A stretch of 64,000 nucleotides of DNA from Dehalococcoides mccartyi. GTDB lineage: Bacteria; Chloroflexota; Dehalococcoidia; UBA2979. The notes under the pieces were generated by a model. The model had not been told where the DNA came from. It saw only the letters and a program-made list of their open reading frames with translations, and made no database searches. Position 1 is the first letter of the stretch. Each line of letters begins with the position of its first letter. Location: NCBI GenBank assembly GCA_945865925.1, contig CAMBFG010000002.1:12421-76420 (forward strand), read 5' to 3'. Shown one piece after another: positions 3,378 to 28,673 of this stretch. The position numbers were made by a program, and so were the translations under genes.

Positions 3378-3439
3378 TGCCACCCTCGCTTCAACCCTCG
3401 GCCGGCGCCCTCGAAGGGACGCCGGCCGGGGGCAGTCCA

Positions 3440-4519: not shown

Positions 4520-4606
4520 GGCAGGTCTCCAGTCAGAGGCATCGAAGTGGCTCGGTACGTTTCGATCGCCTCCGGGTGACCGGTCAGCCTGCGCGGGAGG
4601 GACGTG

Positions 4607-5243: not shown

Positions 5244-5292
5244 GTCGAGTTCCCATATCGGTCTGGTAGGGATTCAGAGGGCCTGAGAAACG

Positions 5293-5325
5293 CCCTCGAG
5301 GGGCGGTTGGCAGGCATTCCGGAAT
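5293..5325. promoter_or_regulatory. two 10-bp perfect palindromes (CCCTCGAGGG, ATTCCGGAAT) in the divergent Rrf2/sir promoter region; candidate operator
   Basis: Seen directly in the lower-GC 283-bp intergenic region 5244-5526. Confidence 0.25.
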
Positions 5326-5526
5326 CACCGGCACGGTGTAGGGGAATGGCTTGTCACCCCTCGACCGCAGACCTATACTCCGATACATGACCAGTTCGGT
5401 CAAGATACTCGTGTTTAGGCGTCGGGAAATCTCTCCCAGACTCAGTCCCCACCGGACGAGCGTTATGAGAACCTTGCGCGACTTCAGACCGAATGCGTCC
5501 CCACGCGCCAGAGAGCGAGCACGACG

Positions 5527-7311: not shown

Positions 7312-7396
7312 CGTCGCGCGCCTGACCGCAGGGTGCGGGGCGGGCGACGGCCCGCCCGCTCCATTCACCGGGGAGAGCCCCGGAAGGGAACCACCG

Positions 7397-8113: not shown

Positions 8114-8132
8114 ACGACCCGGAGCACGACGG

Positions 8133-10309: not shown

Positions 10310-10408
10310 GCCATCACGGGGCGGCCGAACGGGGCCGTCCGAAGGTCGCCAATCCTCGGCGACTCCCCCCGAACCTCGGGAGGCGCGTCACCGAAGAGGC
10401 CACCTAGA

Positions 10409-12459: not shown

Positions 12460-12464
12460 GTCCC

Positions 12465-13373
12465 GTGCCTCGCCTCCGCCTCGCCACTCGCGCTTCCGCG
12501 CTCGCCCTCGTCCAATCGCGCCTCGCTGCCGATGCCATCCGCGCCGCCCATCCTGACGTCGAGATCGAACTCGTCGAGGTGAGCACCCGTGGCGACCGTG
12601 ACCAGGCGACACCACTCAGCGCAATGGGCGGCGAGGGTGTCTTCGTCGCCGCCGTCCGTGACGCGGTACGCGAGGGTCGTGCGGACGCCGCCGTGCACTC
12701 GCTCAAGGACATGCCCACGATGCCCGTCCTCGGCCTCGTCATCGCCGCCATGCTCGAACGTGCCGACCCGCGTGACGCCTTCGTCGGCCGCGGCGGCCGA
12801 CGCCTGCGCGACCTCGCTGCTGGCGCGCGCGTCGGCACGAGCGCGACCCGGCGCGCCGCGATCCTGCGTGCGATGCGCCCCGACCTCGAGATCGTGGAAA
12901 TCCGAGGCAACGTGGACACGCGCCTCGCGAAGGTGGAGCGCGGCGAGTACGACGGCACGGTGCTCGCCGCCGCCGGACTGCTCCGCCTCGGACGGCTGGG
13001 TGAGGCGACGGAGATCTACGAGGCGCACGAGTTCCTCCCGTCACCGGGCCAAGGCGTCATCGCCATCGAGTGCCGCACGGACGACGCAGCTACCCGCGCG
13101 TTGATCGAGGCCGCAGACCACGCGCCGACGCGACTCGCTGCGACGACGGAGCGCGCCGTGCTCGCCGCCCTCGGCGCCGGGTGTGAACTCGGCGTGGGCG
13201 CGTACGCGCAGCGCGAAGACGACCTGATCGCCCTGCGCGCGATGCTTGCCCCCGGCGATGGCATGGGCGCACCGATCTTCGGCGACGCGACCGGCCGGAT
13301 CGCGGACGCCGAGGAGTTGGGCCACGGCCTCGCCGAGCGGCTGAAGGTCGCCCTCGAAGGTGGGATCGCGTGA
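12465..13373 (+). CDS. hemC: hydroxymethylbilane synthase (porphobilinogen deaminase)
   Basis: HemC N-terminal LRLATRASALA and family length. Confidence 0.85.
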   Translation: MPRLRLATRASALALVQSRLAADAIRAAHPDVEIELVEVSTRGDRDQATPLSAMGGEGVFVAAVRDAVREGRADAAVHSLKDMPTMPVLGLVIAAMLERADPRDAFVGRGGRRLRDLAAGARVGTSATRRAAILRAMRPDLEIVEIRGNVDTRLAKVERGEYDGTVLAAAGLLRLGRLGEATEIYEAHEFLPSPGQGVIAIECRTDDAATRALIEAADHAPTRLAATTERAVLAALGAGCELGVGAYAQREDDLIALRAMLAPGDGMGAPIFGDATGRIADAEELGHGLAERLKVALEGGIA

Positions 13374-14914
13374 GCCTCGGACACGTGTGGCTGGTCGGCG
13401 CGGGGCCGGGCGACCCCGGACTGATCACCGCGCTCGGCCTCGCCGCCCTGCGCCGCGCGGACGTCGTCGTCTTCGACCGCCTCGCCCCCCACGAACTCCT
13501 CGACGAAGCGCCGTCCGAGGCGATCCGGATCGACGCGGGGAAGAGTGCGGACAACCACACGCTGACGCAGGACGAGATCAACGCACTCCTCGTCCAGCAT
13601 GGCAGCGCCGGGCGGCGCGTCGTGCGCCTCAAGGGCGGCGACCCGTACGTCTTCGGGCGTGGCGGGGAGGAAGCCATCGCGCTGGCCAAGGCGGGCGTCC
13701 CCTGCACCGTCATCCCCGGCGTGACCTCGGCCATCGGTGGGCTCGCCCTCGGCGGTGTCCCCGTCACCCACCGAGGCATCGCGACCTCGTTTGCCGTGGT
13801 CACCGGCCACGAAGATCCGACGAAACCCCAAGAAGGCGTCGACTGGGCACGCCTCGCAGGTGCCAGCGACACGATCGTGGTGCTGATGGGCGCCGCCCGC
13901 CTCGACGGCATCGCGCGCGCGCTGATCGAGGGTGGCCGTCCGGCCTCCACGCCCGCGGCCGTCATCCAGGAAGCGAGCACGCCACGCCAGCGCGCCGTCA
14001 CCGGCACCCTCGCCACCATCGCCGAGGCCGCCCAAGCCGCGAAGATCGAGGCGCCTGCACTGTTCGTGATCGGCGACGTCGCCGCGTTCCAGCAGTCGCT
14101 CGCGCCGAGCGCCCTCGCGCCGCTCGCGGGGAAGCGTGTCCTCGTCACCCGTACACGAGCGCAGGCCTCGTCGCTTGCCGAGGCGCTCCGCCTCGAGGGC
14201 GCGTACCCGCTGCTGCTCCCCGCGATCGAACTCGAACGCCGCGTGGACGCCTCGGCCGCCGCGCGCGTCGCCGCCGCGCTCACCGAGGGCGTCTACGGGT
14301 GGACGGTGTTCACCTCGGCCAACGCGGTCGAGGCGTTCGTCGATGCACTGTTTGAGGCCGGCGGCGACGCTCGCGCGCTCGCGCGCACTCGCATCGCCGC
14401 GATCGGCACCGCCACCGAGGGCGCCCTCCGCACCCGAGGCCTGCGCGCGAACCTCGTCCCCACGGAAGCCATCGGCGAGGCGTTGGGTACCGCCCTCGCG
14501 CCGCACGTCGGCGGAACGCGTGTGCTACTCCCGCGTGCCGAGGGCGCGCGCGACACCTTGCCCGCCGCACTCCGCGTCGCCGGAGCCGAGGTCGACGAAC
14601 TGACGCTCTACCTCGCCGCTCCGCCTGCGGAACCGCCCGCCGAGGTGCTGGCCGCCCTCCGCGCCGGTGAGGTCGATGTGGCGATGTTCACCTCCTCCTC
14701 CACCGTAACCAATCTCGCCTCGATGCTCGGCGGTGACCTCAGCGCCCTGAGCGGGGCGGTCATTGCCTGCATCGGACCGATCGTGGCCGAGACGGCGCGC
14801 GAACGAGGGCTGCGGGTGGACGTGGTGGCCGAGCCGCATACGATCGATGGGCTGGTCGAGGCGACGCGTGCGTTCCTGCACGCCCGCCGCCCCGCGCGGA
14901 CGGAGGTCCGGTGA
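13370..14914 (+). CDS. uroporphyrinogen-III C-methyltransferase fused to uroporphyrinogen-III synthase (CobA-HemD)
   Basis: N-terminal half has [10 protein letters not shown] and GGDP (SUMT); C-terminal half is HemD-like ([20 protein letters not shown]). The GTG start overlaps the hemC stop. Confidence 0.8.
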
Positions 14915-15915
14915 TGGTTGCAGCCACGCGCCTCGCGCCGTTCACGCGCACCCGTCGCACGCGACGTACCGAGGCCCTGCGCGCCCTCGTGCGCGAGACG
15001 CGCCTCGACCCATCGCAGTTCGTCTACCCGCTGTTCATCACGCACGGCCAGGGCATCCGCCACGAGATCTCGTCGATGCCCGGCCAGTACCAGTTGAGCG
15101 TGGACATGCTGGCGCCCGAGGTCACCGAGTTGCGCGACCTCGGCGTGCGCGCGGTGCTGCTCTTCGGTCTGCCCGCCTCGAAGGACGCCGAGGGCACCGA
15201 GGCCTACGCCGACGACGGCATCGTGCAGCAGGCGATCCGCGAACTGAAGCGGCTTGACCCGGCCCTCGTGACCATCGCGGACATCTGCCTCTGCGAGTAC
15301 ACCGACCACGGCCACTGCGGCATCCTCACCGCGACCGGTGAGGTCGACAACGACCCGTCGCTCGACCTGCTCTCGCGCATGGCGGTCTCCACCGCCCGTG
15401 CGGGTGCGGACGTCATCGCCCCCAGCGACATGATGGACGGGCGCGTCGGCGCGATCCGCGAAGCCCTCGACGAGGCCGGGTATGCGAGCACGCCGATCAT
15501 GGCCTACTCCGCGAAGTACGCCTCCGCCTTCTACGGCCCGTTCCGCGAGGCCGCCGACTCCGCGCCGCAGTTCGGCGACCGCCGCGGCTACCAGATGGAC
15601 CCCGCGAACGGCCTCGAAGCCCTGCGCGAGGTGGAGGCGGACATCGAGGAGTCCGCGGACATCGTGATGGTGAAGCCCGCGCTCCCGTACCTCGATGTGA
15701 TCCGCGCCGTGCGCGAGCGCACCGACCTGCCGCTCGCCGCCTACAACGTCTCCGGCGAGTACGCGATGGTGAAGGCCGCCGCCGCGAACGGCTGGCTGGA
15801 CGAGCGCCGCGTCGTCCTCGAGATCCTCACCTCGATCGCGCGGGCGGGTGCGGGGATCATCATCACCTACCACGCGAAGGATGCCGCGCGCTGGCTGCGC
15901 GAGGATCGCCGGTGA
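14911..15915 (+). CDS. hemB: porphobilinogen synthase (ALA dehydratase)
   Basis: HemB family similarity throughout. It overlaps the upstream stop. Confidence 0.85.
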
Positions 15916-17198
15916 CCGGACCGCGCTCGCTGGCTGCCATGACGCGCGCCGAACGCGTGCTCCCCGGCGGCGTCGACTCCCCCGTGCGCGCCTACCGCGC
16001 CGTCGGCGGGTCGCCCGTCTTCGTCGCCTCCGGCCGAGGCGCCACGATCACCGACATCGACGGCCGTGAGTACCTCGACTATGTGCAGTCGTACGGCCCG
16101 CTGATCCTCGGCCACGCCCACCCCGCGGTCGTCGAGGCGATCCGCGCCGCCGCACCCCTCGGCACCTCCTTCGGCGCACCGACCGAGGCCGAGCCCGCCC
16201 TTGCCGAGCGCATCATCGAGGCCGTCCCATCGATCGAGATGCTGCGCTTCGTCTCCTCCGGCACGGAGGCGGCGATGAGCGCCATCCGGCTCGCCCGGGC
16301 CGCGACGAAGCGTGACCTGGTCCTGAAGTTCGAGGGCTGTTACCACGGTCACGCGGACGGCCTGCTGGTCGCCGCCGGCTCAGGCGTCGCGACGCTCTCG
16401 CTGCCTGACTCGGCCGGTGTACCTGCCGCCTATGCCGCGCAGACGCTCGTTGCCCCCTACAACGACCTCGATGCCGTGCGCGCGACCTTCGCGGCGCATC
16501 CCGGCGCCATTGCTGCCATCATCGTGGAGCCGATCGCCGGCAACATGGGCCTCGTCGAACCAGCCGAGGGGTACCTCGAAGGCCTCCGCGCGCTCTGCGA
16601 CGCCGAAGGCGCCCTGCTCATCTTCGACGAGGTGATCAGCGGGTTCCGCGCCTCGATCGGTGGCGCGCAGGCGGTGTACGACATCCGACCTGACCTCACC
16701 GTCCTCGGCAAGATCATTGGAGGCGGGCTCCCCGTCGGGGCGTATGGCGGACGGCGCGACCTGATGTCGATGATTGCCCCGCTTGGCCCCGTCTACCAGG
16801 CGGGCACCCTGTCCGGGAACCCGCTTGCGATGGCTGCAGGCACCGCCACCCTCGACGCCCTCCGCGCAATGCCCGATGCGTACGTGCGCCTCGAGGCCCT
16901 GGGCGAGCGGCTGGAGACCGGCCTGCGGGCCGCCATCGAGTCTGCCGGGGTGCGCGTGTCCGTCGCGCGGTCCGGCTCGCTACTCACGCTGTTCTTTGGC
17001 CTCGATGCCCCACCCACGAACTGGGCACAGGCGAAACAGGCCGACACCGCCGCCTTCGCGAAGTTCCACCACGCGATGCTCGAAGGCGGCGTCCACCTGC
17101 CCCCGAGTCAGTACGAGGCGTGGTTCCTCTCGCTGGCGCACACCGACGCGGACGTCGATCACACGGTCGCCGTCGTAGCGCGCGCGCTGACTGCGTAA
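15912..17198 (+). CDS. hemL: glutamate-1-semialdehyde 2,1-aminomutase
   Basis: Class-III aminotransferase with [13 protein letters not shown] and the YHGH motif. Confidence 0.9.
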
Positions 17199-17464
17199 TC
17201 TCGTCCAGATGTCCGATCTCTCCTGCGCCAGCGACGCCTGCCATGATCGGGACAAGATCATCGCGCTGATGCACTGAGAAACAGGCCTCCAGCCTCCGTT
17301 CACACAGCCGTCATGAGAACGCAGCGTGAGCGATATCTTCCGCACGCCTCAGCGTGACCGTCACGACACGTCAGGCACACACGGACGCAAACGAAGATTC
17401 ATCGTCACGAAACCCCCCATTGGTTGGCGCTCCGTACCTTCGAGGTGGGAGAGGTCAGCCACCA
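17199..17464 (+). promoter_or_regulatory. 266-bp lower-GC leader/promoter region upstream of nirA, with GTCAC/GAAAC-type repeats
   Basis: Intergenic sequence gtgaccgtcacgacacgtcaggcac...tcatcgtcacgaaacc. It ends with a GGGAGAGG RBS before the ATG at 17465. Confidence 0.3.
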
Positions 17465-18979
17465 ATGAGCAACAAGTTCGAGGCGATGAAGGCGGAAAAG
17501 GACGGGCTGGACGTCTGGCCGGACCTCCTGCGCTACGCCGCCGAGGACACCCCGGTCGACCAGATCCCGGACGACGACCTCCAGCGGATGAAGTGGTACG
17601 GGGTCTTTCACCGGCCGCAGACGCCCGGCACCTTCATGATGCGGCTCCGCTTGCCTGGAGGGCGCGCAACCTCTGACCAGCTGCGCGTGATCGCAAGCCT
17701 GGCCGAGGCGGGCACGCACCCCTATCTAGATGTCACATCCCGCCAGAACATCCAGTTGCGCGGTTTCCGCCTCCCCGATGTCCCCGGCATGATCGAGGCG
17801 CTGCGCAGCGCAGGCGTCCTCGCTCAGCAGACCGGCTTGGACAATGTCCGCAACATCATGGGCTGTCCCCTGGCCGGCATCGATGGGAACGAGGTCTTCG
17901 ACGCCACAGACCTCGTCGAAGCGCTCGTGGATCCGTACCTCGGCGACCGCGCCTACTCGAACCTCCCGAGAAAGTTCAACGTCTCGATCACCGGTTGCCG
18001 TCAGGACTGCGGGCACGCGCAGACGCAGGACCTCGGTCTGATCCCTGCGACACTCGATGGTGCCGTTGGCTTTAACGTCCTGGTCGGTGGCGCCCTCGGT
18101 GGTACCTCGCCACGGCTCGCCACTCCGCTCGATGTCTTCGTCGAGCCCGCCGAGGTACAGCCACTCTTCCTCGCACTCTTGCGCGTCTACCGCGACCACG
18201 GGCCACGCGAGAAGCGCACACAGGCCCGGCTCAAGTGGCTGATCGAAGAGTGGGGTGAGCCTCGGCTCCGCGATGCTGTCGAGGCCGAGGTGGGCCACGC
18301 ACTCCGTCGTGCCGGCGCGGACGAGCGCAGCGCGGTCGCCGGCGACCATCTGGGCGTCCACCCGCAGCGCGAGCCAGGTATGTCCTATGTGTGGCTGCAC
18401 GTCGCCGTCGGGAATATCCGCGCTGCGACGCTGCGCGAACTCGCTCGAGTCGCCGAGGTCTACGGACGTGGGGAGGTTCGCCTCACCGTGGACCAGAACG
18501 CGCTCATCCCGCACGTACCAGACGCGTTGCTCCCCACGCTCCTGGCCGAGCCGCTGCTGACCGAACTGCGTCCTGACGTGCCGTCGATCTGGCGGAACCT
18601 CGTTGCCTGTACTGGCAACGACTACTGCCACTACTCGCTGATCGACACGAAGGGAACGGCGCTCCGTGTCGCGACCGAGCTCGAACGCCGCGGTGTCGAG
18701 GCACCAGCGGGCACACGCATCCACGTCTCTGGTTGTGTCCACGCCTGTGCCAAGCACCACATCGCGGACATCGGCATCCAAGGCGTGAACGTCCGCCTCA
18801 ACGGGCAGGTTGAGGAGGCGGGCGACATCTTTGTCGGCGGACGCCTCGGCGACTCCGGCCGTCTCGCCACTCGCTCTCAGGAGAAGGTTTTACTCACCGA
18901 CCTCGCGGATGCCATCGAAGGACTCCTCCGCGGAGCGTCCACCCCCGCACCCATCACATCTCCGGCGATCGCCGGCTAA
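17465..18979 (+). CDS. nirA: ferredoxin-nitrite reductase (siroheme/[4Fe-4S])
   Basis: NirA/Sir fold with motifs TGCRQDCGHAQ and SGCVHACAKHH, followed by the nitrate ABC transporter genes. Confidence 0.8.
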   Translation: MSNKFEAMKAEKDGLDVWPDLLRYAAEDTPVDQIPDDDLQRMKWYGVFHRPQTPGTFMMRLRLPGGRATSDQLRVIASLAEAGTHPYLDVTSRQNIQLRGFRLPDVPGMIEALRSAGVLAQQTGLDNVRNIMGCPLAGIDGNEVFDATDLVEALVDPYLGDRAYSNLPRKFNVSITGCRQDCGHAQTQDLGLIPATLDGAVGFNVLVGGALGGTSPRLATPLDVFVEPAEVQPLFLALLRVYRDHGPREKRTQARLKWLIEEWGEPRLRDAVEAEVGHALRRAGADERSAVAGDHLGVHPQREPGMSYVWLHVAVGNIRAATLRELARVAEVYGRGEVRLTVDQNALIPHVPDALLPTLLAEPLLTELRPDVPSIWRNLVACTGNDYCHYSLIDTKGTALRVATELERRGVEAPAGTRIHVSGCVHACAKHHIADIGIQGVNVRLNGQVEEAGDIFVGGRLGDSGRLATRSQEKVLLTDLADAIEGLLRGASTPAPITSPAIAG

Positions 18980-18992
18980 CGAGAGGATTCCT

Positions 18993-20366
18993 TTGGATCA
19001 CGAGGCCGCTCCCACCACCACTGATCAGGATGTATCCATCGCCTCGGAGGGCGGGCGAGGAGTCCCACGTCGGCGATTCCTGACTCTGGCCGGTGCTGCC
19101 CTCGCCCTGCCGCCCCTGCTCGCGGCCTGCGGCAGCGACGAGTCCGCACCAAAGTCAGATAGCACCGCCGCTGCGCCCGCACCGAACGCCACTGCGGCGC
19201 CCGGCGAAGTCGTCCCTCAGGGATCGGGCGAGAAGATCAAGATCGGTTTCATCGCGCTCACCGACTGCGCCTCGGTCGTGATGGCGAAGGAACTCGGCTA
19301 CTTCAAGAAGTACGGCCTGGATGTGGACGTGGTGAAGCAGGCCTCCTGGGCCAGCACTCGTGACGCGCTCCTGACGGGCGACATCCAGGCCGCGCACATG
19401 CTCTTCGGGATGCCATTCTCCGTGTACACGGGCATCGGTGGCACTGCCGGCAAAGAGATCATGATTGCAATGGTCCTGAACCAGAACGGCCAGGCGATCA
19501 CGCTGTCTAACCCCGACTTCGGCGGCAAGGTCGGCTACAAGCAGACCGATAAGGTGAAGGCCGCCGTTGACGCCGTGCGCGCTCGCAAAGAGCCCACCTT
19601 CGCAATGACCTTCCCAGGCGGCACGCACGACATGTGGCTGCGCTACTGGCTCGCCGCGGCGAACGTCAGCCAGAAGACGGTCAAGATCATCACGATCCCG
19701 CCTCCGCAGATGGTCGCAAACATGAAGGTCGACGCGATGGACGGCTTCTGCGTCGGCGAGCCGTGGGGCGGCGTCGCCGTGAAGGAGAACATCGGCTTCA
19801 CCGCCATCACTACCCAGGACATCTGGAAGCACCACCCCGAGAAGGCCCTCGGCGTCAACGCCGACTTCGCTACCAAGCGTCGAGGCGACCTGAAACTGAT
19901 GGTGCGCGCCATCCTTGAGGCGTCCCAGTACATCGAGGACAAGAAGAACATCCCGAACGTCGCGAAGGTCATCGGTGCGCAGTCGTATGTCAACGCGCCG
20001 GCGGACGTCATCGACAATCGCCTCGAAGGCCGGTACGCGCTCGGGAAGGACCTGGGCGAAGTCACGTTCGGCGAAGACACCATGCGGTTCTACCGCGAGG
20101 GCAACGTGACGTTCCCGAAGTACAGCCACGCGATGTGGTTCATGGCGCAGTACGTGCGGTTCGGGTACCTCAAGGAGATGCCAGCCAACGCCAAGGAGAT
20201 CGCCCAGAAATTGATCATGCAGGACCTCTACAAGGAAGTCGCTGCTGAGATGAAGGTGCCGGTCCCCACCGACGACATGAAGCCCTTCACGCTGGACCTG
20301 GACAACGCCACCTTCGACCCGAACAACCCAGCCGCCTACCTCGCGAAGTACGGGAACCTGGCATGA
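18993..20366 (+). CDS. nrtA: nitrate/nitrite ABC transporter substrate-binding protein (Tat-lipoprotein)
   Basis: Twin-arginine signal RRRFLTLAGAALALPPLLAACGS with NrtA/CmpA-like body. TTG start with a GAGAGGA RBS. Confidence 0.75.
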   Translation: MDHEAAPTTTDQDVSIASEGGRGVPRRRFLTLAGAALALPPLLAACGSDESAPKSDSTAAAPAPNATAAPGEVVPQGSGEKIKIGFIALTDCASVVMAKELGYFKKYGLDVDVVKQASWASTRDALLTGDIQAAHMLFGMPFSVYTGIGGTAGKEIMIAMVLNQNGQAITLSNPDFGGKVGYKQTDKVKAAVDAVRARKEPTFAMTFPGGTHDMWLRYWLAAANVSQKTVKIITIPPPQMVANMKVDAMDGFCVGEPWGGVAVKENIGFTAITTQDIWKHHPEKALGVNADFATKRRGDLKLMVRAILEASQYIEDKKNIPNVAKVIGAQSYVNAPADVIDNRLEGRYALGKDLGEVTFGEDTMRFYREGNVTFPKYSHAMWFMAQYVRFGYLKEMPANAKEIAQKLIMQDLYKEVAAEMKVPVPTDDMKPFTLDLDNATFDPNNPAAYLAKYGNLA

Positions 20367-21220
20367 GCACACTCACGGAACAACGTGTGGCCGTTGGCAC
20401 CCGTGTCGGCGGACGAACCTTCGAGGTCCCCGCGGCGAAGATCGTGCGCAGCATCGCAGTGAACGTGGGCTCGCTCGCCGCAGCGGCCGGCATCCTCGGA
20501 CTGATCTGGGGCATCGCCGCCGCGACAGTCGGTGACGACCTTCCGGGCCCGATTGCGACGATGAAGACATTCTTCACATTGGTCAGCGACCCGTTCTACG
20601 ATCGCGGACCAAACGACAAGGGCATCGGCATCCAACTCGGCGCCTCGCTCTGGCGAGTATTCCGCGGATTCGCGGTCGGGACAGCTGTGGCGATCCCGCT
20701 CGGCGTGCTCATCGGCTCGAGCGAGATCGGACGCCGCGTGTTCGACCCGATCGTGCAAGTCTTGCGACCGGTCTCACCGCTCGCCTGGTTCCCGATCGGC
20801 CTCGTCACCCTGCAGTCGGCTCCGGATGCCGCCGTGTTCGTGGTGTTCATCACGTCGCTCTGGCCCACGGTCATCAACACCGCTTTTGGCGTGTCGAGCA
20901 TTCCGCAGAGTCACCGCAACGTGGCGCGAGTCTTTGAGTTCTCGCCAGGCACCTACCTGCGCCGGGTCGTCATCCCTCACAGCCTCCCGCACATCCTCGT
21001 AGGACTGCGCCTGAGCATCGGTATCGCCTGGGTGGTGATCGTGGCGGCGGAGATGCTCTCCGGCGGCACCGGCATCGGGTTCTACGTCTGGGACGCCTGG
21101 AACGCCCTCGACCTGCAGCGCGTCATCTCCGCCATCCTGCTCATCGGCATCGTCGGCCTGCTCCTCGACCGCGTGGTCTCGATGATCGCCCACCGCTTCG
21201 AGTACCCGGAGGTGCCGTAG
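20363..21220 (+). CDS. nrtB: nitrate ABC transporter permease
   Basis: NitT/TauT permease. Its start overlaps the nrtA stop (ATGA). Confidence 0.85.
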   Translation: MSTLTEQRVAVGTRVGGRTFEVPAAKIVRSIAVNVGSLAAAAGILGLIWGIAAATVGDDLPGPIATMKTFFTLVSDPFYDRGPNDKGIGIQLGASLWRVFRGFAVGTAVAIPLGVLIGSSEIGRRVFDPIVQVLRPVSPLAWFPIGLVTLQSAPDAAVFVVFITSLWPTVINTAFGVSSIPQSHRNVARVFEFSPGTYLRRVVIPHSLPHILVGLRLSIGIAWVVIVAAEMLSGGTGIGFYVWDAWNALDLQRVISAILLIGIVGLLLDRVVSMIAHRFEYPEVP

Positions 21221-22062
21221 TGACCCTCACCACTCATCCTGAAACCCCCATCGATCCGTTCGCCGATCGCCGCTGGCGCGAGACGAGCCGTGCTCCTCAC
21301 ATCGAGGTAGCCGGGGTCGAAGTCTCGTTCGGCGCCTACACGGCGATCACGGGCATCGACCTCGCGATCGCGCGGGGGGAATTCGTCAGCCTGATCGGCC
21401 ACTCCGGCTGTGGCAAATCGACCTTGCTCAATCTGATGGCAGGCCTCGGGCGACCGACGCAGGGCACGGTCCAGGTCGAAGGCCAGATTGTCGAGGGCCC
21501 GGCCGCGGATCGCTGCATGGTCTTCCAGCATCACGGCCTCCTGCCGTGGCTCTCTGTGTACGACAACATCTACGTGGCCGTGGATGCTGCGAGGCGATCC
21601 CACACCACCGACGAGAAGGCCGCGCGCGTGGAGCGTGTGCTCCAGGCCGTGCGGATGTGGGACCACCGAACGAAGAAGCCTGGCATGCTCTCTGGCGGCC
21701 AGCGTCAACGTGTCTCGGTTGCGCGTGCGTTCGCTGTGGCGCCTTCAGTCCTCCTTCTGGACGAGCCCTTCGGTGCGGTCGACGCGCTCACCAAGCGGGC
21801 GCTCCACCGCGAACTCGTCGAACTGTCAAGCATTGTCGGCACGACGGAGACCGTCGTGATGGTCACGCACGACATCGACGAAGCGATCTTCTTGTCTGAT
21901 CGCATCGTCGTAATGACCGACGGGCCTTCTGCTGGCATCCGCGAGATTGTGGACGTGCCGATTGCGCGCCCCCGCACGCTATCCGATGTGATGCACAGCC
22001 CGGTCTACATCGAACTCCGAGACCACCTGCTCAGCCTGCTCGGTGACGACGAACCGCGATAG
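21220..22062 (+). CDS. nrtC: nitrate ABC transporter ATP-binding protein
   Basis: GHSGCGKST, LSGGQRQR, LLLDEP. Confidence 0.85.
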   Translation: MTLTTHPETPIDPFADRRWRETSRAPHIEVAGVEVSFGAYTAITGIDLAIARGEFVSLIGHSGCGKSTLLNLMAGLGRPTQGTVQVEGQIVEGPAADRCMVFQHHGLLPWLSVYDNIYVAVDAARRSHTTDEKAARVERVLQAVRMWDHRTKKPGMLSGGQRQRVSVARAFAVAPSVLLLDEPFGAVDALTKRALHRELVELSSIVGTTETVVMVTHDIDEAIFLSDRIVVMTDGPSAGIREIVDVPIARPRTLSDVMHSPVYIELRDHLLSLLGDDEPR

Positions 22063-22082
22063 CACTCGACACGAGGGACTTC

Positions 22083-22823
22083 ATGACGTCACAACCCGCT
22101 CCCTGGATCAGCCGGCTGTTCTCGTTCGGCAGTAAGGCGAGGACGGCCTCGACGCGTCCCGCCTCGGAACGGCGCATCCGAGAAGGGATCCGACCGCCGA
22201 AGTTCGCAGATAAGTTCGCATTGCTCGACTTCGAGGCGCCGGTCGCGCCGGTCATCTCGATGTTCGCGCCGCCGCCCGAACTCATGCTGGGCGACGTCAC
22301 GATTGGCATCCGCGGCGAAGACCTCAAGTACGCCGACATCCCGTGGTCGACCCTTTCGGCGGTGCCACGCGTCTCGATGAAGGCACCGATGGTCTGTCAG
22401 ATCTTCAACTGGAACGAAGAGATCGAGTGGTCGGGCATCCGACTCGCGGACTTCCTGGAAGCAACCGGATTACAGGTCCACGACCTCGGCTACTTCGTCA
22501 TTCACTCTCGCGATGGCCAATACTTCGAGACGCTCTCGCGCGATGAGGCACTGGACCCGCGAGTCATGCTCGTCAACCAGATGAACGGCCTGCCGCTCCC
22601 ACACGAATACGGCGGCCCGGTCCGCCTCGTGGTGCCGTTCCTGCAGGGGTACAAGAGCGTGAAGTGGGTGGCGCGCATTCACGCCTACCGACACGACCCC
22701 ATCGGCATCAAGCGGCTGCTCGGTCAGAGCAAGTCCGGTGCGCTGGGCCGTGCCTGGCTCGACAAACTCGGAATCGTCCCCGCCGAGGGCCGTGCAGGCG
22801 ATCCGGCCCCCGACCGCGTCTAG
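22083..22823 (+). CDS. sulfite-oxidase-family molybdopterin (Moco) domain protein, no signal peptide
   Basis: SO-family Moco domain with a candidate Mo-ligand Cys in MVCQIFNWNEEIEWSGIRLADFLEATG. Other matching motifs are YGGPVRLVVPFLQGYKSVKWV and the NGLPLP region. It is 246 aa with no dimerisation or heme domain. Confidence 0.7.
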   Translation: MTSQPAPWISRLFSFGSKARTASTRPASERRIREGIRPPKFADKFALLDFEAPVAPVISMFAPPPELMLGDVTIGIRGEDLKYADIPWSTLSAVPRVSMKAPMVCQIFNWNEEIEWSGIRLADFLEATGLQVHDLGYFVIHSRDGQYFETLSRDEALDPRVMLVNQMNGLPLPHEYGGPVRLVVPFLQGYKSVKWVARIHAYRHDPIGIKRLLGQSKSGALGRAWLDKLGIVPAEGRAGDPAPDRV

Positions 22824-24238
22824 CGCAGCGCGAGCACGTCACCCGCACCCGTAGCGACGAACATGGCGGCGCGCGTCGGCGCCAGACTGCGGATGCCATC
22901 GATCTTGCGCTCACCCACGGGCTTGCCGGTGGCCGCGTCCAGCAGCAGCAGGCGGCCTTCCTCGCCGAAGAGGAACCCGTCGGCCGTGGCGATCGGTGCG
23001 ACCACGAGACGACCCGTCGTGGTGCTCCAGACCGGCTTCCCGTCCGCGAGGCTCAGCGCAGCGGCCACCCCATCACGGGAGGTCACCACCGTGACGTCCC
23101 GACCGACTGCGGCAGGCATCGTCGTCCGCGGGAGCGACGTGACGTCCCAGATGGTCGGCGCGGGCGGAACCGCCGGTGCCATACCGATCAGGTGGAAGCG
23201 AAACCATGCGCCTCGGACGCCGTCCCACCACGGGCTGCGTGAGGACGTCTCGAACACCGTCGCGTTCCGGCCGTAGAGGGCGAGCACGCGTCCGTCGCGC
23301 ACCGCCAGCGAGGACGGCTGCGTCCGGGAGAACGCCACATGGAACGTGACCTGGCCGTTCGTGCGGTCGAAGGCAACGGACTTGTCTCCCGTTGCAACGA
23401 CGAGGTACTGACCCTCGACGACCGGCGCGACGGTTGCCCAGCCCACGTCGAGGATCTGCTCCCAGAGAATGCGGCCAGTCTCGGCGTCGAACGCGAACAG
23501 GCCATCGGTGCTGTAGGTGTACACGACGCCATCGACTACCACGGGCGACGCCTGGAACGAGCCGGCGACGAAGCGTGACTGCCACGCCTCCGTGCCGTCC
23601 AACGCGCTCACAACGGTTACGCGCCCTTCGCGCTGAGCGATGTACACGCGGTCACCTGCGATCACCGGCGCCGCAAATGGCGCGGTGCTGAGGGGCAGCG
23701 TCCACAACGTCTTGCCGCTGGCCGCATCAAGGCCGACCACACGGCCGTCCTCGAGTGCCGCCACGACAATCCGCCCATCCGAGACGAGCGGCGTGGCCAC
23801 CGGTGAACCAAGCGAGACCTTCCACGCTTCCGCTCCGCCAACCCGCGAAGGCGCGTCGATGGAACGGAGGCCGCGGGCGTCGCCCTCGGAGGTGGTCCAG
23901 GCGCCGGTAGCCACGGAACGTGTGGCGACCGTCGGGCGGTCAGGCTTCGGCGGCTTGTCGATGAAGGTGGCGTAGACCCACCACCCCACCAGGAGGACCA
24001 GGATCCCCAGCAGCCCGTAACGCCAGATCTGCCCGGCTGAGAACCGCCCCTGCTCCATGCGCTTCGCGAGGCCTGCCTCGACCTTGAGCGCCGTCGCGGC
24101 TTCCTCAGCGGTCAGCGGCGTGACCGACGCGATGTCGCGCCAGCAGTGGAGACAGCGTTCGGAACCGGCGCTGACGCGCCCGCAGGCTGGGCAGCGCCGG
24201 GCGATCTGCGGCTGAACGGGGGCAAGGGTTTCGGGCAT
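22820..24238 (-). CDS. membrane-anchored PQQ-like beta-propeller repeat protein with N-terminal zinc ribbon
   Basis: CPACGRV...CLHCW zinc ribbon, a single TM (YGLLGILVLLVGWWVYATFI), and repeated DG-x-V-x-LDA-x-TGK-x-LW propeller blades. Confidence 0.7.
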   Translation of the reverse strand: MPETLAPVQPQIARRCPACGRVSAGSERCLHCWRDIASVTPLTAEEAATALKVEAGLAKRMEQGRFSAGQIWRYGLLGILVLLVGWWVYATFIDKPPKPDRPTVATRSVATGAWTTSEGDARGLRSIDAPSRVGGAEAWKVSLGSPVATPLVSDGRIVVAALEDGRVVGLDAASGKTLWTLPLSTAPFAAPVIAGDRVYIAQREGRVTVVSALDGTEAWQSRFVAGSFQASPVVVDGVVYTYSTDGLFAFDAETGRILWEQILDVGWATVAPVVEGQYLVVATGDKSVAFDRTNGQVTFHVAFSRTQPSSLAVRDGRVLALYGRNATVFETSSRSPWWDGVRGAWFRFHLIGMAPAVPPAPTIWDVTSLPRTTMPAAVGRDVTVVTSRDGVAAALSLADGKPVWSTTTGRLVVAPIATADGFLFGEEGRLLLLDAATGKPVGERKIDGIRSLAPTRAAMFVATGAGDVLALR

Positions 24239-24305: not shown

Positions 24306-24974
24306 CTACGCCCGTCGCCCGCGGCGTCCCGCCGCAACCAGCAGCCGCGCCACGACCGCCCCGACGGTCAGCGCCGCCGTCACGAGGTAGAGCGCCCGCG
24401 CGGGCCACGCCAGGGCGTCACTCCCCGCCTGGAGCGCATGGGCGAACGCCAGGATGCACATTCCGAACGAGAGCGCGTGGATCGAGCGCCACCACGCGTA
24501 GGGGATGTAAGCACGCAGCCACGAGGAGATCGCGACGAGGGCCAGGCCCCAGAACGCGACCGTCCCCAGCGCGATCTGCACGCGCATCACGTCCGAGGTA
24601 TAGGGCACCAGCGCCCCTACCAGGGTGATATCGCTGAACGAGTGCGCCACGAACACGGCGACATGCGCGACCACCGCGATCAGCCCGGCCACTGTCCACT
24701 GCTGGTGGAACTCGATCAGCCAGCGTCGCGAGAGCAGCCCCTCCACACCGCGCGCGCTCACGAGGGCCCCCGTGAACAGCGAGGCCCACAGCGCCACGTA
24801 AGAGACGAACCCGGTCGCGCGGCCGGCGTACCAGAGCAGCGGCGTCTCCGATTCGTCGGCCACCGTCAGCAGCGCCGGCACGACGAGGAGCAGCGCGCCG
24901 GTGAAGCAGACGACCGCCAGCCAGCGCACCGGCGCGAGGAGCAGCGGCGGTTCAACCGAGCGTCGGGTGCTCAA
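24306..24974 (-). CDS. ferric-reductase-like transmembrane heme-b protein (MsrQ/YedZ-like)
   Basis: Polytopic membrane protein with two His pairs at 13/12-residue spacing in TM helices (FHQQW...AVVAH and SIH...LAFAH), the bis-heme ligand pattern of the FRD domain. Confidence 0.6.
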   Translation of the reverse strand: MSTRRSVEPPLLLAPVRWLAVVCFTGALLLVVPALLTVADESETPLLWYAGRATGFVSYVALWASLFTGALVSARGVEGLLSRRWLIEFHQQWTVAGLIAVVAHVAVFVAHSFSDITLVGALVPYTSDVMRVQIALGTVAFWGLALVAISSWLRAYIPYAWWRSIHALSFGMCILAFAHALQAGSDALAWPARALYLVTAALTVGAVVARLLVAAGRRGRRA

Positions 24975-25818
24975 GCCACGCCCCCATCCCCGGCGTCATC
25001 CACCATCCACCGTCGTCACCTTCGATCAGCACTTCCGCCCCATGCGAGCGCACGACATCGAGGCTGCCGGTGCCGCCTGCGACGAGCGTCGTCGCCAGCA
25101 CATCCGCTGTCGTCGCGCGCCGGTGCGCCACCACCGCGCTCCGGACGCCTCGGAACGCGGGCGCGCCGGTCGAGGTGTCGATCACGTGGTGGGCGACCAC
25201 GCCGCTCGCCGTCATCCACCGGCGCTTCGCCGTCGACGACGTCGCCACGGCGCCGGGCCCGAGCCATGCCACGAGGCCATCCCCCACGCCGACCGGCCAC
25301 GGCACCGAGGGCGTGTTGCCTGCGCGCAGGTCCCCGCCGCCGTCGACGAGGTACCGGTCGACTCCGTGCGCCTCGAGGTAGTCGGCGACCGCATCGACCG
25401 CCCAGCCCTTGCCGATGCCACCGAGGTCGAGCGTCCCCTCGCCATCGAGGGTCACCCGATCGCCCGCCACGGTCGCGGAAGGCCGAGCCGTATCGGGATA
25501 GCCGACGACGCCGCTCTGGACTACCTCGAAACTGCGGTCGTAGCCGGCTGCCACCAGCGCGGCCCCAACACCCGGGTCGAAGACACCTTCGGTCGCGTCG
25601 CGCCACTCGAGGGCGGCTCGGACGACGGCGGCCAGCAAGGGATCCGTGGCGGTGCGGTCGCGGTTGAGCGTGCTCAATGCGGAGCACTCGCGAAAGCGCG
25701 ACAGGCGGGCCTCGATGTCCCCTACGAGCGCCTCAATGTCGTCGAGGACACGCGGGGTGGCGCCGTAGGTGCGCACCCACCACTCCGTGTTCATCGCGTG
25801 GAAGGTGCGCTCCTGCAC
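24952..25818 (-). CDS. apbE: FAD:protein FMN transferase (ApbE family)
   Basis: ApbE-like N-terminus FHAMNTEWWV, and a GIGKGWAVD-type motif (GGIGKGWAVDAVADYL). Confidence 0.75.
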   Translation of the reverse strand: MQERTFHAMNTEWWVRTYGATPRVLDDIEALVGDIEARLSRFRECSALSTLNRDRTATDPLLAAVVRAALEWRDATEGVFDPGVGAALVAAGYDRSFEVVQSGVVGYPDTARPSATVAGDRVTLDGEGTLDLGGIGKGWAVDAVADYLEAHGVDRYLVDGGGDLRAGNTPSVPWPVGVGDGLVAWLGPGAVATSSTAKRRWMTASGVVAHHVIDTSTGAPAFRGVRSAVVAHRRATTADVLATTLVAGGTGSLDVVRSHGAEVLIEGDDGGWWMTPGMGAWLEHPTLG

Positions 25819-26313: not shown

Positions 26314-26510
26314 TACGCCCCCTGCGCGGCCCCCGCCGCGACTGGTGCCCGAATCTGTGCGCAGAGCGCCGTGAAGACGTCCGCGTGCAGTCTCGGGCTC
26401 AACATCAGAACGATACCTTCCCGCTGTTCGTTTGGAATGCGATAGGAACGTCATCGGTAACGCCTGTGTCGGCACAGCACCGTCACAGGATTCGGACGTA
26501 CGCTCAGTGC

Positions 26511-27176
26511 ATGCGAATTCTCGTGGCCGAAGACGACACCCGCCTCGCCCGCCTCGTAGAGCGCGGACTTGCCGCTGAGGGACACGACGTCCAGGTGGCC
26601 CATGATGGCGAAGAAGCGCTCTTCCTCGCCCGGGAGGCTCTGCCTGACCTCATCGTGATGGACGTGATGATGCCGCGCCTCGATGGGTTCGAGTGTGTCC
26701 GCCAGATGCGGGCCGAGCGCATGGACACCCCCGTCATCTTCCTGACGGCGCGCGGGCAACTCGATGACCGGGTGAAGGGCCTCGACCTGGGCGGCGACGA
26801 CTACCTCGTCAAGCCGTTCGCGTTCGACGAACTCACTGCCCGTGTGCGCGCGTTGGGCCGCCGCGCCGCTGGTGCCGAGGGCGACGTCCTCACGTCGGGG
26901 CGCGTCTCGCTCGATGTGCGCCGGCACGAGACGAGTGTGGACGGGGTCGCCGTCGACCTCTCCCCCACCGAGTACCGCCTCCTGGAGCACCTCATGCGCC
27001 ACGTCGGTCAGGCACTGACCCGGCAGGCGATCCTCTCCGCCGTCTGGGGCTTCGACTCAGAACCGGAACCGAATGCCGTTGACCTCTATGTGCACTACCT
27101 CCGCCGAAAGTTGGGGGATGCCGTCGCCATCGCGACGGTCCGAGGTGTGGGCTACCGCCTCGACCGAGCCGTCTGA
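26511..27176 (+). CDS. OmpR-family response regulator
   Basis: Receiver DLIVMDVMMPRLDG, plus a winged-helix C-terminus (VHYLRRKLG...GVGYRL). Confidence 0.85.
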   Translation: MRILVAEDDTRLARLVERGLAAEGHDVQVAHDGEEALFLAREALPDLIVMDVMMPRLDGFECVRQMRAERMDTPVIFLTARGQLDDRVKGLDLGGDDYLVKPFAFDELTARVRALGRRAAGAEGDVLTSGRVSLDVRRHETSVDGVAVDLSPTEYRLLEHLMRHVGQALTRQAILSAVWGFDSEPEPNAVDLYVHYLRRKLGDAVAIATVRGVGYRLDRAV

Positions 27177-28673
27177 GTGATCCGCCGCGCCCGACTGCGC
27201 CTGACGCTCTGGTACAGCGCCGCACTCCTCGTGGTGCTCCTCATGCTGTCCGTGGTCACCTACACCGCTGTGACCCGCACGCTCCGACGCGAACTCGAAG
27301 AAGGCATCTCCAGCGCCGTCACCCAGTGGCTGGAGGTCTCACGACGCCCCCCGGCGCGTCCCGGTGAAGGGCCCGCCGCCCGCGGTCCCGGGTTCAACCT
27401 CCGGCCGAACGCCACACCCTTCACCCGTGCCACATCGACGGCCACACCACTGGCAGCAGCATCCCCGGACGCCACCCCAACCGTAACCGCAGCAGGTGCC
27501 ACAGCCTCGCCGTCCCCGCAGGCCTCGCCCCCAGCTGCGCCAGCGACTGCTGCGCCGCCACGCCCAGCCGGCACGCCTCGTGCCCGCCTCGACCCCCGGC
27601 TCCTGTTCGCCGGAGACACTGCTGACGTCACCGATGTGGGCTCTACCAGCGATGTCTTCCTCCTCGCCTACCGCGCAGACGGCGTGCTGGCAGTCAACCA
27701 GCGGCGGGTGAATCCCGAGGCGATCACGACCTCCGACGCTGTCGCCAAGGCACTGGCCGGTGAAGCTTCGTGGGCGACCGTGCATGACGACGGCGTCAAC
27801 CTCCGCATCCATGCGAGCCCGATCGAGGTTGCAGGGCGTACGGAAGGCGTCGTCGTCGGTGCGCGCAACCTGGACGAGTACGACCGGCAGGTCCGCGCCG
27901 TACTGACCGTCCTGGCGATGGTGGCCGTTGGCGGGGGACTCATGTCCCTGGCGGGCGCCTACCTGTTCGCCGGCCATGCGCTGCAGCCGCTGGAAGAAGC
28001 CTACGGACGCCAGCGCTCGTTCGTCGCGGACGCCTCCCACGAACTGCGTTCCCCCCTTGCTGTCATCCGCGCCTCGGTCGACCTCTTGCTGCGCGAGCCG
28101 CTGCCCGCACCTCACCGCGAGAGCGTGGAGGAGATCCGAGACGTCACGCAGGAGGCTGCCACCCTGATCGACGACCTGCTCGAACTCGCGCATGCCGAGG
28201 AAGGCACGCCCGGCCACGCCGACAGCGATCTTGCTGTTGAGGTATCAGCAGCCATCGAGCAAGTCAGAGCGATCCTCGAACGGCGGAACCACGCGGTGAG
28301 CACCGTGCTCGCCCCGGTCCAGGCCGGAGCGGCGGGCGCGGAAGTCCGTCGCATCGTGCGGGCGCTCCTCGAGAACGTCGCGGCCCATACGCCCGAGGGC
28401 ACGCCCGTCCGCGTGGAGGTCGCCGAGCGCGGCGGCCACGCGATCCTCGCAGTTGAAGATGCCGGCCCCGGGATCCAGGACGGCCAGGAAGCGACCGTCT
28501 TCGAGCGGTTCGCGCGCCTCGACGAGGCACGCACACCCGGCACCGGCCACGGCGCCGGGCTCGGCCTCTCGATCGTACGAGCGCTGGCAGAGCGTCGAGG
28601 TGGCACGGTCAGCGCGTCACGCCCCGCGGACGGCGGCCTGCGCGTCGAGGTCTCGCTCCCCCTCGCGAAGTAG
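27177..28673 (+). CDS. sensor histidine kinase with PT/A-rich periplasmic sensor region
   Basis: Two TMs, H-box HELRSPL, and HATPase G-boxes (GTGHGAGLGLSIV). The GTG start abuts the RR stop. Confidence 0.8.
   Translation: MIRRARLRLTLWYSAALLVVLLMLSVVTYTAVTRTLRRELEEGISSAVTQWLEVSRRPPARPGEGPAARGPGFNLRPNATPFTRATSTATPLAAASPDATPTVTAAGATASPSPQASPPAAPATAAPPRPAGTPRARLDPRLLFAGDTADVTDVGSTSDVFLLAYRADGVLAVNQRRVNPEAITTSDAVAKALAGEASWATVHDDGVNLRIHASPIEVAGRTEGVVVGARNLDEYDRQVRAVLTVLAMVAVGGGLMSLAGAYLFAGHALQPLEEAYGRQRSFVADASHELRSPLAVIRASVDLLLREPLPAPHRESVEEIRDVTQEAATLIDDLLELAHAEEGTPGHADSDLAVEVSAAIEQVRAILERRNHAVSTVLAPVQAGAAGAEVRRIVRALLENVAAHTPEGTPVRVEVAERGGHAILAVEDAGPGIQDGQEATVFERFARLDEARTPGTGHGAGLGLSIVRALAERRGGTVSASRPADGGLRVEVSLPLAK

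Follow-up and report, generated by a model that had tools for sequence, protein, structure and literature searches.

A 64,000-nucleotide stretch of the Dehalococcoides mccartyi assembly GCA_945865925.1 (contig CAMBFG010000002.1, forward-strand positions 12,421 to 76,420; hereafter the window) carries a nirA-nrtABC array followed by the gene for a 246-aa protein of the sulfite oxidase (SUOX) fold. We propose, with a probability of roughly 0.6, that this protein is a stand-alone assimilatory nitrate reductase working with molybdenum-molybdopterin (Mo-MPT) and replacing the NasA/NarB enzymes, which carry bis(molybdopterin guanine dinucleotide) (bis-MGD). That it is a molybdenum enzyme functionally tied to nitrate and nitrite assimilation appears very probable from its genomic surroundings, and the repeated pairing of its gene with nitrate operons, in some archaea as well as dozens of uncultured bacteria, speaks for a prokaryotic nitrate reductase of a type not recognised so far. 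The eukaryotic nitrate reductase uses the SUOX fold. The prokaryotic nitrate reductases known so far are all bis-MGD enzymes of the DMSO-reductase family, and nitrate reduction by the SUOX fold is not known outside eukaryotes.

A molybdenum cofactor protein in the nitrate reductase slot of the operon

Inspection of the open reading frames (ORFs), their translations and the DNA itself revealed a co-directional array on the forward strand made up of nirA, nrtA, nrtB, nrtC and the gene of the 246-aa molybdenum cofactor (Moco) protein (Table 1). All spacers are at most 20 nt long or the genes overlap, which is the layout of a nitrate-assimilation operon; the nrtA start lies 13 nt past the nirA stop, and spacers homologous to the nrtC-Moco gap measure 13 nt in the related locus L001 and 29 nt in L005. 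The close packing and the conserved gene order support co-transcription of the five genes. The region upstream of nirA contained no sigma-70-like match, terminator or Rfam match, promoter and terminator scans being uninformative for high-GC Chloroflexota DNA, and an Rfam search of the window and four further clusters recognised no riboswitch, of the Moco type or any other.

The encoded proteins fit nitrate uptake and nitrite reduction. NirA contains two copies each of the Pfam domains NIR_SIR and NIR_SIR_ferr, and its top NCBIfam model is ferredoxin-nitrite reductase, with 497.8 bits versus 101.9 bits for ferredoxin sulfite reductase. NrtA begins with a leader resembling those of twin-arginine translocation (Tat) substrates and lipoproteins (RRRFLTL...LLAAC) and has Synechocystis NrtA as its nearest PDB match (2g29, E 1e-83), the bicarbonate-binding CmpA being weaker (E 3e-66). 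It keeps W102, Q155, H196, G240 and K269, all five under a single numbering offset; these correspond to the nitrate ligands reportedly described by Koropatkin 2006. The ATPase reaches 284.6 bits with the NCBIfam model TIGR01184 (ntrCD), slightly below the cut-off of 291.8, and is devoid of the C-terminal NrtA-like regulatory domain.

The Moco gene occupies exactly the narB slot of the classical nirA-nrtABCD-narB operon. A tblastn search with E. coli NapA yielded no match in the window at E <= 0.1, and none of the large window ORFs scanned with Pfam is a bis-MGD enzyme, all of them being otherwise assigned. The same probe readily detects NarB/NasC in control loci, 80 of which were collected by a metagenome scan anchored on NirA and annotated like the SUOX loci described below. 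A NarB/NasC-like gene (~520-590 bits with the NCBIfam NasC model) occurs in 22 of these 80 controls and a SUOX gene in a single one (L160), with no locus carrying both; the arrangements found include nirA-nrtABCD-narB, nrtABCD-narB-nirA and nirA-narK-nasA. Among 80 loci with the SUOX gene the NapA probe detected a bis-MGD gene within 10 kb only once (L025). The SUOX gene stands in the narB/nasA slot of canonical nirA-nrtABC(D)-narB operons and would therefore represent a non-orthologous gene displacement.

Fold and predicted metal site of the 246-aa protein

The only Pfam match of the protein is PF00174 (Oxidored_molyb), whose gathering score of 24 is exceeded with 86.9 bits (E 1.5e-24, residues 73-205); Pfam recognised no Mo-co_dimer, Cyt-b5 or FAD/NAD domain, nor any of the domains Molybdop_Fe4S4, Molybdopterin and Molydop_binding. 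An alignment-based AlphaFold2 (AF2) model was obtained with a predicted local distance difference test (pLDDT) of 86 and a predicted template modelling score (pTM) of 0.84, and all 45 significant Foldseek matches of this model in PDB are SUOX-fold proteins at ~20-25% identity, including chicken and plant sulfite oxidase, SorA, SorT, SoxC, YedY/MsrP and Pichia nitrate reductase, with PruR at lower scores. On the profile match and the predicted structure, the protein is a member of the SUOX-fold molybdoenzyme superfamily. The fold shows catalytic plasticity: the matches also include PDB 3r18/3r19, double and triple mutants of chicken sulfite oxidase that reportedly gain nitrate reductase activity.

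In profile alignments Cys105 coincides with the Mo-ligand Cys of plant sulfite oxidase (At-SO C98), chicken sulfite oxidase (C185) and YedY (C102), and it is invariant across 108 homologues; the loop that follows is short and YedY-like, ~16 residues shorter than in sulfite oxidase and nitrate reductase. The Moco-binding signature GGPxRLVVPFLQGYKSVKW is intact, aligns with GFPLRVVVPG..RSVKW of the sulfite oxidases and with YedY, and is nearly invariant in the family. Together with the moaA, moaC, moaD, moaE, moaB and moeA genes that accompany the SUOX gene in some loci, this motif suggests that the protein binds Mo-molybdopterin. Besides Cys105, the family is characterised by an invariant N-terminal R-x5-PKFADKF-x3-DF motif and the C-terminal DPxGIKRLLGQS segment, whose Lys210 falls, according to hhalign, on MsrP W267 (W223 of mature YedY), an active-site Trp; generic SUOX relatives show GYWEQRGY at this position. 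Lys210, followed by Arg211, in place of the pocket Trp would suit an anionic substrate. Inspection of the N-terminus disclosed neither a twin-arginine motif nor a hydrophobic stretch, and many homologues begin right at the conserved REGIRPPKF motif.

An earlier note on this DNA, made from the letters alone, had described the nirA-nrtABC genes with the SUOX-type Moco gene behind them, an intact candidate Mo-ligand Cys, a protein free of signal peptide, heme and dimerisation domains, and the absence of any NasA/NarB-type enzyme from the 64 kb, and had recommended a comparison of PF00174 with Molybdopterin-type models. ORFs, Pfam, NCBIfam, the NapA search and the alignments bear out all of these points, PF00174 standing alone in the 246 residues; what has to be corrected is the gap after nrtC, given there as 21 bp and measuring 20 nt.

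Position within the superfamily

The protein scores 40.6 bits with the NCBIfam equivalog model of MsrP (NF003767, cut-off 207), 44.2 with SoxC (420), 32.6 with SorA (600) and 30.2 with SorT (570), i.e. far under every cut-off, and the June 2026 release of NCBIfam holds no model for its family. A family-profile search of 1.84 billion cluster representatives retrieved only 19 clusters under E 1e-30. Because the scores in this search fall in steps from ~340 to ~230 and ~115 bits, the family would be an isolated clade of the superfamily outside MsrP/YedY; it is tight and far from MsrP/YedY, the sulfite dehydrogenases and eukaryotic nitrate reductase. Public annotation is generic, namely 'molybdopterin-dependent oxidoreductase' or, at the Joint Genome Institute (JGI), an automatic 'YedYZ catalytic subunit'.

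Comparison with known systems leaves the protein outside each of them, i.e. eukaryotic nitrate reductase, MsrP/YedY, the sulfite dehydrogenases, NasA/NarB and PruR. With the nitrate reductase of Pichia angusta (PDB 2bii/2bih) it shares the fold, the cytoplasmic location, a predicted Mo-MPT centre with one Cys ligand and, as proposed here, the assimilatory conversion of nitrate to nitrite that feeds a siroheme nitrite reductase. Identity to the Pichia enzyme is nevertheless ~20% (Foldseek E 1e-8, phmmer E 4.5e-3), the dimerisation, cytochrome b5 and FAD/NADH domains are missing from what is a prokaryotic, operon-encoded protein, and a short CQIFNW loop replaces the CAGNRR stretch with the nitrate-binding Arg. 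Because of this short loop, the low identity and the missing dimerisation domain, any nitrate reductase activity would probably reflect a recruitment of the fold independent of the eukaryotic enzyme.

E. coli MsrP/YedY, from group 1 of the superfamily, resembles the protein in being built from one Moco domain only, with no dimerisation domain, and in its short loop past the Mo-ligand Cys (hhalign probability 97.6% over 142 columns), and that family is biased to reductase chemistry, as we propose for the 246-aa protein. Unlike MsrP/YedY, the latter has no Tat signal and no MsrQ partner, carries Lys210 instead of Trp223, lacks Glu104 and is found in a nitrate-assimilation context; a tblastn search of the window and 86 loci with E. 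coli MsrQ stayed empty at E <= 0.1. Neither the dimerisation domain nor the periplasmic export signal of SorA, SorT and SoxC is present. PruR of Agrobacterium and Vibrio (PDB 7kos, 7kom; Foldseek E 5e-7) is likewise a small stand-alone SUOX-fold domain, but it is periplasmic, ~140 aa long, devoid of the Mo-ligand Cys and engaged in c-di-GMP signalling, whereas the family described here keeps both the Cys and the Moco motifs. As to NasA, NasC and NarB, the likeness concerns the operon slot (after nrtABC(D), beside nirA or nirB, with NarK and P-II), the proposed role and a plausible ferredoxin- or NirB/NasG-linked electron supply; these are ~75 kDa proteins of unrelated fold with bis-MGD and a [4Fe-4S] cluster, compared with a predicted Mo-MPT protein of ~25 kDa that would not need mobA. 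A further comparison is with the group 3 sulfite oxidase-family proteins, which are single-domain, cytoplasmic, environmental and uncharacterised, and for which a review states no function or link to nitrogen (PMC7759655). Our family probably falls in or beside this loosely defined group.

Conservation of the nitrate context across phyla

The scan for relatives, restricted to one genome per species, provided 140 relatives, and genomic context was counted in the best 80 of these 140, all of them metagenome-assembled genomes (MAGs), by unbiased clustering of all flanking ORFs combined with probe-based annotation. The 80 loci belong to Chloroflexota (Dehalococcoidia, SAR202, Tepidiformaceae and others), to many Nitrospirota (Ca. 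Manganitrophus, Troglogloeales, Leptospirillum and bins labelled Nitrospira) and to Elusimicrobia, Acidobacteria, Lindowbacteria and two Thaumarchaeota/Nitrosopumilales bins. A nitrite reductase gene lies on the same strand in 56 of them and a nitrate transporter gene accompanies 56 (42 NarK-type proteins of the major facilitator superfamily, MFS, and 14 NrtABC), P-II being present in 51 and an ammonium transporter in 9. Loci without such neighbours are mostly on short contigs; where at least 5 kb could be read on both sides (40 loci), a nitrite reductase was found in 36-37 and a nitrate transporter in 31. NarK nitrate/nitrite transporters are the top family of the MFS proteins beside the SUOX gene. 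The recurrent architectures are listed in Table 1. Nitrospirota clusters often encode the nitrite reductase as a ~1000-aa chimera, in which the flavoprotein half of NirB, with its FAD/NAD(P)H, Rubredoxin_C and BFD [2Fe-2S] parts, is joined to a complete two-repeat NirA. Enrichments of Ca. Manganitrophus grow with nitrate as nitrogen source (PMC9040806), and two MAGs of this lineage (L026, L069) carry the SUOX cluster.

Cofactor supply travelling with the gene

Enzymes of the SUOX family use Mo-MPT without a nucleotide, while bis-MGD enzymes need MobA. Some SUOX clusters of Thaumarchaeota, Elusimicrobia and Nitrospirota include moaA, moaC, moaD, moaE, moaB and moeA, and mobA was found in none of the Mo-MPT-bearing SUOX clusters examined. 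The presence of an Mo-MPT pathway without mobA fits an Mo-MPT enzyme as the only molybdenum client of the cluster, and each such island thus has the look of a unit complete in itself, combining nitrate uptake, an Mo-MPT enzyme and nitrite reduction. The two thaumarchaeal clusters are located on MAG contigs of Nitrosopumilales/Thaumarchaeota, one of them 234 kb long, and, with the binning taken as labelled, would imply nitrate assimilation in relatives of ammonia-oxidising archaea.

Gene fusions and a decayed copy beside nasA

Fusions connect the SUOX domain with partners in nitrogen metabolism. SUOX::P-II proteins occur in many Nitrospirota, and one metagenomic protein (P0115) joins NirA to SUOX, which is weak evidence because it comes from a single truncated 1.4-kb contig. 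A sister clade of ~50 clusters at 30-37% identity, annotated as 'nitrite reductase small subunit NirD', consists of fusions of a NirD/NasG-type Rieske domain with SUOX. Its members share the GGPLRLVVPFLQGYKSVKW and G-[IY]-K motifs and the P-II-NarK-nitrite reductase context with the stand-alone family and differ in the N-terminal Rieske [2Fe-2S] domain and in the Cys motif, TCLMF[DG]F, an example being a Ca. Sumerlaeaceae MAG. The Rieske domain has the full CPH...CPLH ligand set, the operons read P-II-narK-P-II-nirB-[Rieske::SUOX] with the fusion gene directly after nirB, and no bis-MGD gene was found within 10 kb in any of the four Rieske::SUOX loci examined. In Paracoccus, as Gates et al. 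2011 reportedly found, the Rieske protein NasG takes up electrons from NasB and hands them on to NasC, the nitrate reductase, and this role, taken together with the fusion, suggests an electron path from Rieske centre to Mo.

The sole cultured carrier found is Sandaracinus amylolyticus (two genomes), in which the nirD::SUOX gene directly precedes a bis-MGD nasA. Here the SUOX domain has lost the Mo-ligand Cys (VTTMMFGF), KSVKW has changed to ESVKR and the N- and C-terminal family motifs are absent. Decay of the Mo site exactly beside a canonical NasA is what functional redundancy predicts.

Table 1. Coordinates of the operon features in the window and gene orders of related loci (L numbers denote loci in other genomes; double colons mark fusions)
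Feature	Position	Strand	Remarks
Presumed promoter/regulatory region	17199..17464	+	266 nt, hemL-nirA intergenic; role presumed from position only
nirA, siroheme/[4Fe-4S] ferredoxin-nitrite reductase homologue	17465..18979	+	ATG start; GGTGGGAGAGG precedes the ATG as ribosome-binding site
nrtA, nitrate-binding lipoprotein of ABC transporter	18993..20366	+	Pfam NMT1_2; TTG start, ribosome-binding site read
nrtB, nitrate ABC transporter permease	20363..21220	+	Pfam BPD_transp_1; NCBIfam TIGR01183 236.7 bits, cut-off 209
nrtC/D-type ATPase, 280 aa	21220..22062	+	Pfam ABC_tran
20-nt spacer after the nrtC TAG	22063..22082	+	Shine-Dalgarno-like GAGGGA 6-7 nt before the ATG
Candidate Mo-MPT assimilatory nitrate reductase, 246-aa stand-alone cytoplasmic SUOX-fold Moco protein	22083..22823	+	PF00174, AF2 model, synteny
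VCQIFNW motif, residues 104-110, with candidate Mo-ligand Cys105 (codon 22395-22397)	22392..22412	+	Profile alignments
Moco-binding signature GGPVRLVVPFLQGYKSVKW, residues 177-195	22611..22667	+	Common to all SUOX enzymes
Family-specific DPxGIKRLLGQS segment, residues 205-216	22695..22730	+	Holds invariant Lys210
nirA-nrtABC-SUOX			Window and its relatives
nirA-narK-SUOX			Recurrent architecture
P-II-SUOX-narK-nirA-P-II			SAR202 and other Dehalococcoidia
SUOX(-P-II fusion)-P-II-narK-nitrite reductase-P-II			Nitrospirota
nirA-SUOX-narK-moaA-(TauE-like)-moaD-moaE-moaB-moaC-moeA	L045 (956-9959), L038 (7967-19068)		Thaumarchaeal
P-II-moaA-moaD-moaE-moeA-moaC-moaB	L036		Nitrospirota
moaA-moaC::moaB-MOT1 molybdate transporter-moeA	L081		Elusimicrobia
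~1000-aa NirB::NirA chimeras	L055:10621-13698, L043:10630-13671, L016:10741-13635		Directly downstream of the SUOX gene
nirB-[nirD::SUOX]-nasA(bis-MGD)-nasB-like flavoprotein	L172:7521-14438		Sandaracinus amylolyticus CP011125.1
MFS, PP2C::Ser/Thr kinase, NasC-like bis-MGD, fused 4Fe-4S/DmsC-anchor, MOSC::MobA	L025:949-10633		Directly upstream of intact SUOX-nirB

Neighbouring genes in the window

Immediately before nirA, at 4779-17198, there is a long assimilation cluster comprising, in this order, an Rrf2 regulator on the reverse strand, a sulfite reductase (NIR_SIR), cysH, cysD, cysN, a SirC-like protein with a siroheme synthase domain, hemA, hemC, cobA::hemD, hemB and hemL, so that the pathway for their common cofactor stands between the two siroheme enzymes, Sir and NirA. 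A sulfur-related role of the SUOX protein, which sir and cysHDN upstream might suggest, was rejected, only nitrogen genes being conserved partners. A second ABC transporter of the NMT1_2 type, possibly for sulfonate, nitrate or cyanate, is encoded beside the sulfate-assimilation genes on the reverse strand (1754-4606; binding protein, ATPase and permease).

On the other side, a reverse-strand gene (22820-24238) runs towards the SUOX gene, with a 4-nt overlap of the stop codons; its 472-aa product is a PQQ_2/BamB-like beta-propeller that has a zinc ribbon at the N-terminus and a single transmembrane segment, and the gene is conserved in the closest relatives only. It is followed, also on the reverse strand (24306-25818), by a 222-aa His-rich polytopic membrane protein (24306-24974) and then an ApbE FMN transferase. 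The membrane protein has no Pfam or NCBIfam match and superficially resembles heme-b proteins of the ferric-reductase/MsrQ type, but the MsrQ tblastn was empty; as an MsrQ-like partner it was rejected, since it shows no similarity to E. coli MsrQ, is read from the opposite strand and lacks counterparts in related loci. At 26385-28673 the window encodes an OmpR-type regulator and a HisKA kinase; in a Dehalococcoidia MAG (L005:10762-12976, with the corresponding region in L012 and L006) the SUOX gene is followed by a PilJ-domain/HisKA_3 sensor kinase of NarX-like architecture and an OmpR-type response regulator. The chlorite-dismutase-family protein (PF06778) encoded at 28680-29852 on the reverse strand is probably of the HemQ/coproheme decarboxylase type, which agrees with the presence of heme genes nearby. 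As for NirA itself, neither a nitrate transporter nor a Mo-enzyme gene could be recognised in the short flanks of the five metagenomic proteins nearest to that of the window (L091-L095, 63-65% identity).

Proposed function and alternative explanations

Substrate, cofactor form and electron donor of the 246-aa protein are what we infer from these comparisons. Nitrate would be imported by NrtABC and reduced to nitrite by the SUOX enzyme at an Mo-MPT centre liganded by Cys105, with cycling between Mo(VI) and Mo(IV) as in eukaryotic nitrate reductase, and NirA would then convert nitrite to ammonium. The protein would be the catalytic and sole subunit of a cytoplasmic enzyme. In clusters of the NirA type, such as that of the window, reduced ferredoxin would be the donor, either at the Mo domain itself or through docking on NirA, and in those of the NirB type electrons would pass from NAD(P)H through the FAD/[2Fe-2S] module of NirB and a Rieske/BFD [2Fe-2S] centre to Mo. 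Fusion or adjacency to P-II would place the step under 2-oxoglutarate/ATP-dependent control. The suggestion of the earlier note that this is a non-canonical, SUOX-fold assimilatory nitrate reductase gains support from the comparative tests (synteny, operon slot and distance from MsrP); its check on the nrtC-Moco adjacency shows the pairing with nitrate-transporter and nitrite-reductase genes to be conserved across phyla, and of its analogy with the eukaryotic enzyme the common fold stands, the protein not being a close relative of that enzyme.

Several observations weigh against a nitrate reductase. The protein lacks the CAGNRR motif with which nitrate reductase and sulfite oxidase bind anions, its Cys loop resembling that of YedY; the stand-alone form has no electron-transfer gene conserved at its side; and some carriers are labelled Nitrospira, organisms living on nitrite with less need for such an enzyme. 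The persistence of a Cys-less domain in Sandaracinus may be read as a Mo-independent accessory role, perhaps with NirB. In the Nitrospirae MAG locus L025 an intact SUOX gene lies 3.4 kb from a NasC-like bis-MGD gene, as identified with NCBIfam; the FeS/DmsC-anchor ORF and MobA that follow the latter suggest a respiratory-type enzyme, and the locus may represent either a respiratory enzyme beside an assimilatory cluster or true redundancy. Moreover, our bis-MGD search spans the 64-kb window and the locus flanks, and a nasA or narB gene may reside elsewhere in these genomes.

The last point would leave room for a Moco carrier or storage protein serving a nitrate reductase encoded elsewhere in the genome, a role for which a small single-domain cytoplasmic protein predicted to bind Moco would be suitable. 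We regard it as very improbable: bis-MGD enzymes need MGD and MobA, neither of which is encoded in the Mo-MPT-bearing SUOX clusters, and an operon tends to have either the SUOX gene or NarB/NasC and hardly ever both, as would be expected of a replacement and not of a helper. Moco carrier proteins are also not known to use the SUOX fold. The fusions to P-II and NirD and the Cys-less domain kept in Sandaracinus could instead indicate a non-catalytic or regulatory partner, either a pterin/Moco sensor of nitrate or redox state acting on P-II, the transporter or the nitrite reductase, or a NirD-like accessory subunit, and PruR (Foldseek 7kom, 7kos) illustrates that the SUOX fold can work as a pterin-binding signalling protein. 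Such a function is unlikely, given that the Mo-ligand Cys and the Moco motifs are invariant in 108 sequences, unlike in PruR, that the gene is accompanied in some loci by whole Mo-MPT pathways and a molybdate transporter, and that the fused Rieske domain retains its [2Fe-2S] ligands, which implies electron transfer.

Another kind of catalysis must also be considered, namely a Mo reductase for a different nitrogen oxyanion, an N-oxide or a by-product of nitrite reduction (hydroxylamine, N-hydroxylated compounds or nitrite-to-NO), which would protect or support NirA/NirB without supplying nitrite, in a mARC/YcbX-like role on the SUOX fold. The adjoining nitrite reductase gene, the co-occurrence with a NasC-like enzyme in L025 and the YedY-like Cys loop are compatible with this, enzymes of the YedY type reducing S- and N-oxides (PMC7759655). 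It would nonetheless leave unexplained why clusters with a nitrate transporter and a nitrite reductase lack a further nitrate reductase, why NarB/NasC occupy the same slot in the controls and never occur there together with SUOX, and why the Cys was lost exactly beside NasA, and we hold it to be quite unlikely. Finally, the superfamily fold, the automatic JGI label and the sulfite reductase and cys genes 10 kb upstream might recommend an MsrP/YedY-type methionine-sulfoxide reductase, the other option put forward in the earlier note, or a sulfite-oxidising enzyme lying beside the operon without belonging to it. This explanation is largely refuted and retains hardly any credit, as all four NCBIfam scores are far under cut-off (40.6 versus 207 bits for MsrP), the family is an apparently isolated clade, signal peptide, dimerisation domain and MsrQ homologue are lacking, and the partners conserved across phyla are nitrogen genes, not sulfur genes.

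Implications

A full-text literature search retrieved no paper that ties such a SUOX protein to nitrate assimilation, an earlier mention in Workun 2008 or Yu & Leadbetter 2020 being possible, and a 2025 comparison of nitrogen-assimilation clusters in Nitrospirales mentions no molybdoenzyme in them (PMC12342949). That single-domain SUOX Mo-MPT proteins constitute a fourth class of prokaryotic nitrate reductase, structurally unrelated to the bis-MGD enzymes Nas, Nar and Nap and spread as a cluster, is in our estimation slightly better than an even proposition; the gene cluster would have been transferred among Chloroflexota (including SAR202), Nitrospirota (including the Mn-oxidising Manganitrophus), Elusimicrobia, Acidobacteria and Nitrosopumilales.

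If the proposal is correct, the family would represent a new class of prokaryotic nitrate reductase and a clear case of non-orthologous displacement inside a conserved operon, SUOX-fold nitrate reduction would not be a eukaryotic invention, and part of the long-uncharacterised group 3 sulfite oxidase-family proteins would acquire a function. A single-cofactor enzyme of 25 kDa would be the minimal nitrate reductase known and, as such, attractive for studies of Mo-enzyme mechanism and for engineering. It would also follow that pipelines based on nasA/narB miss nitrate assimilation in metagenomes, in particular that of Dehalococcoidia/SAR202, many Nitrospirota and some archaea related to ammonia oxidisers.

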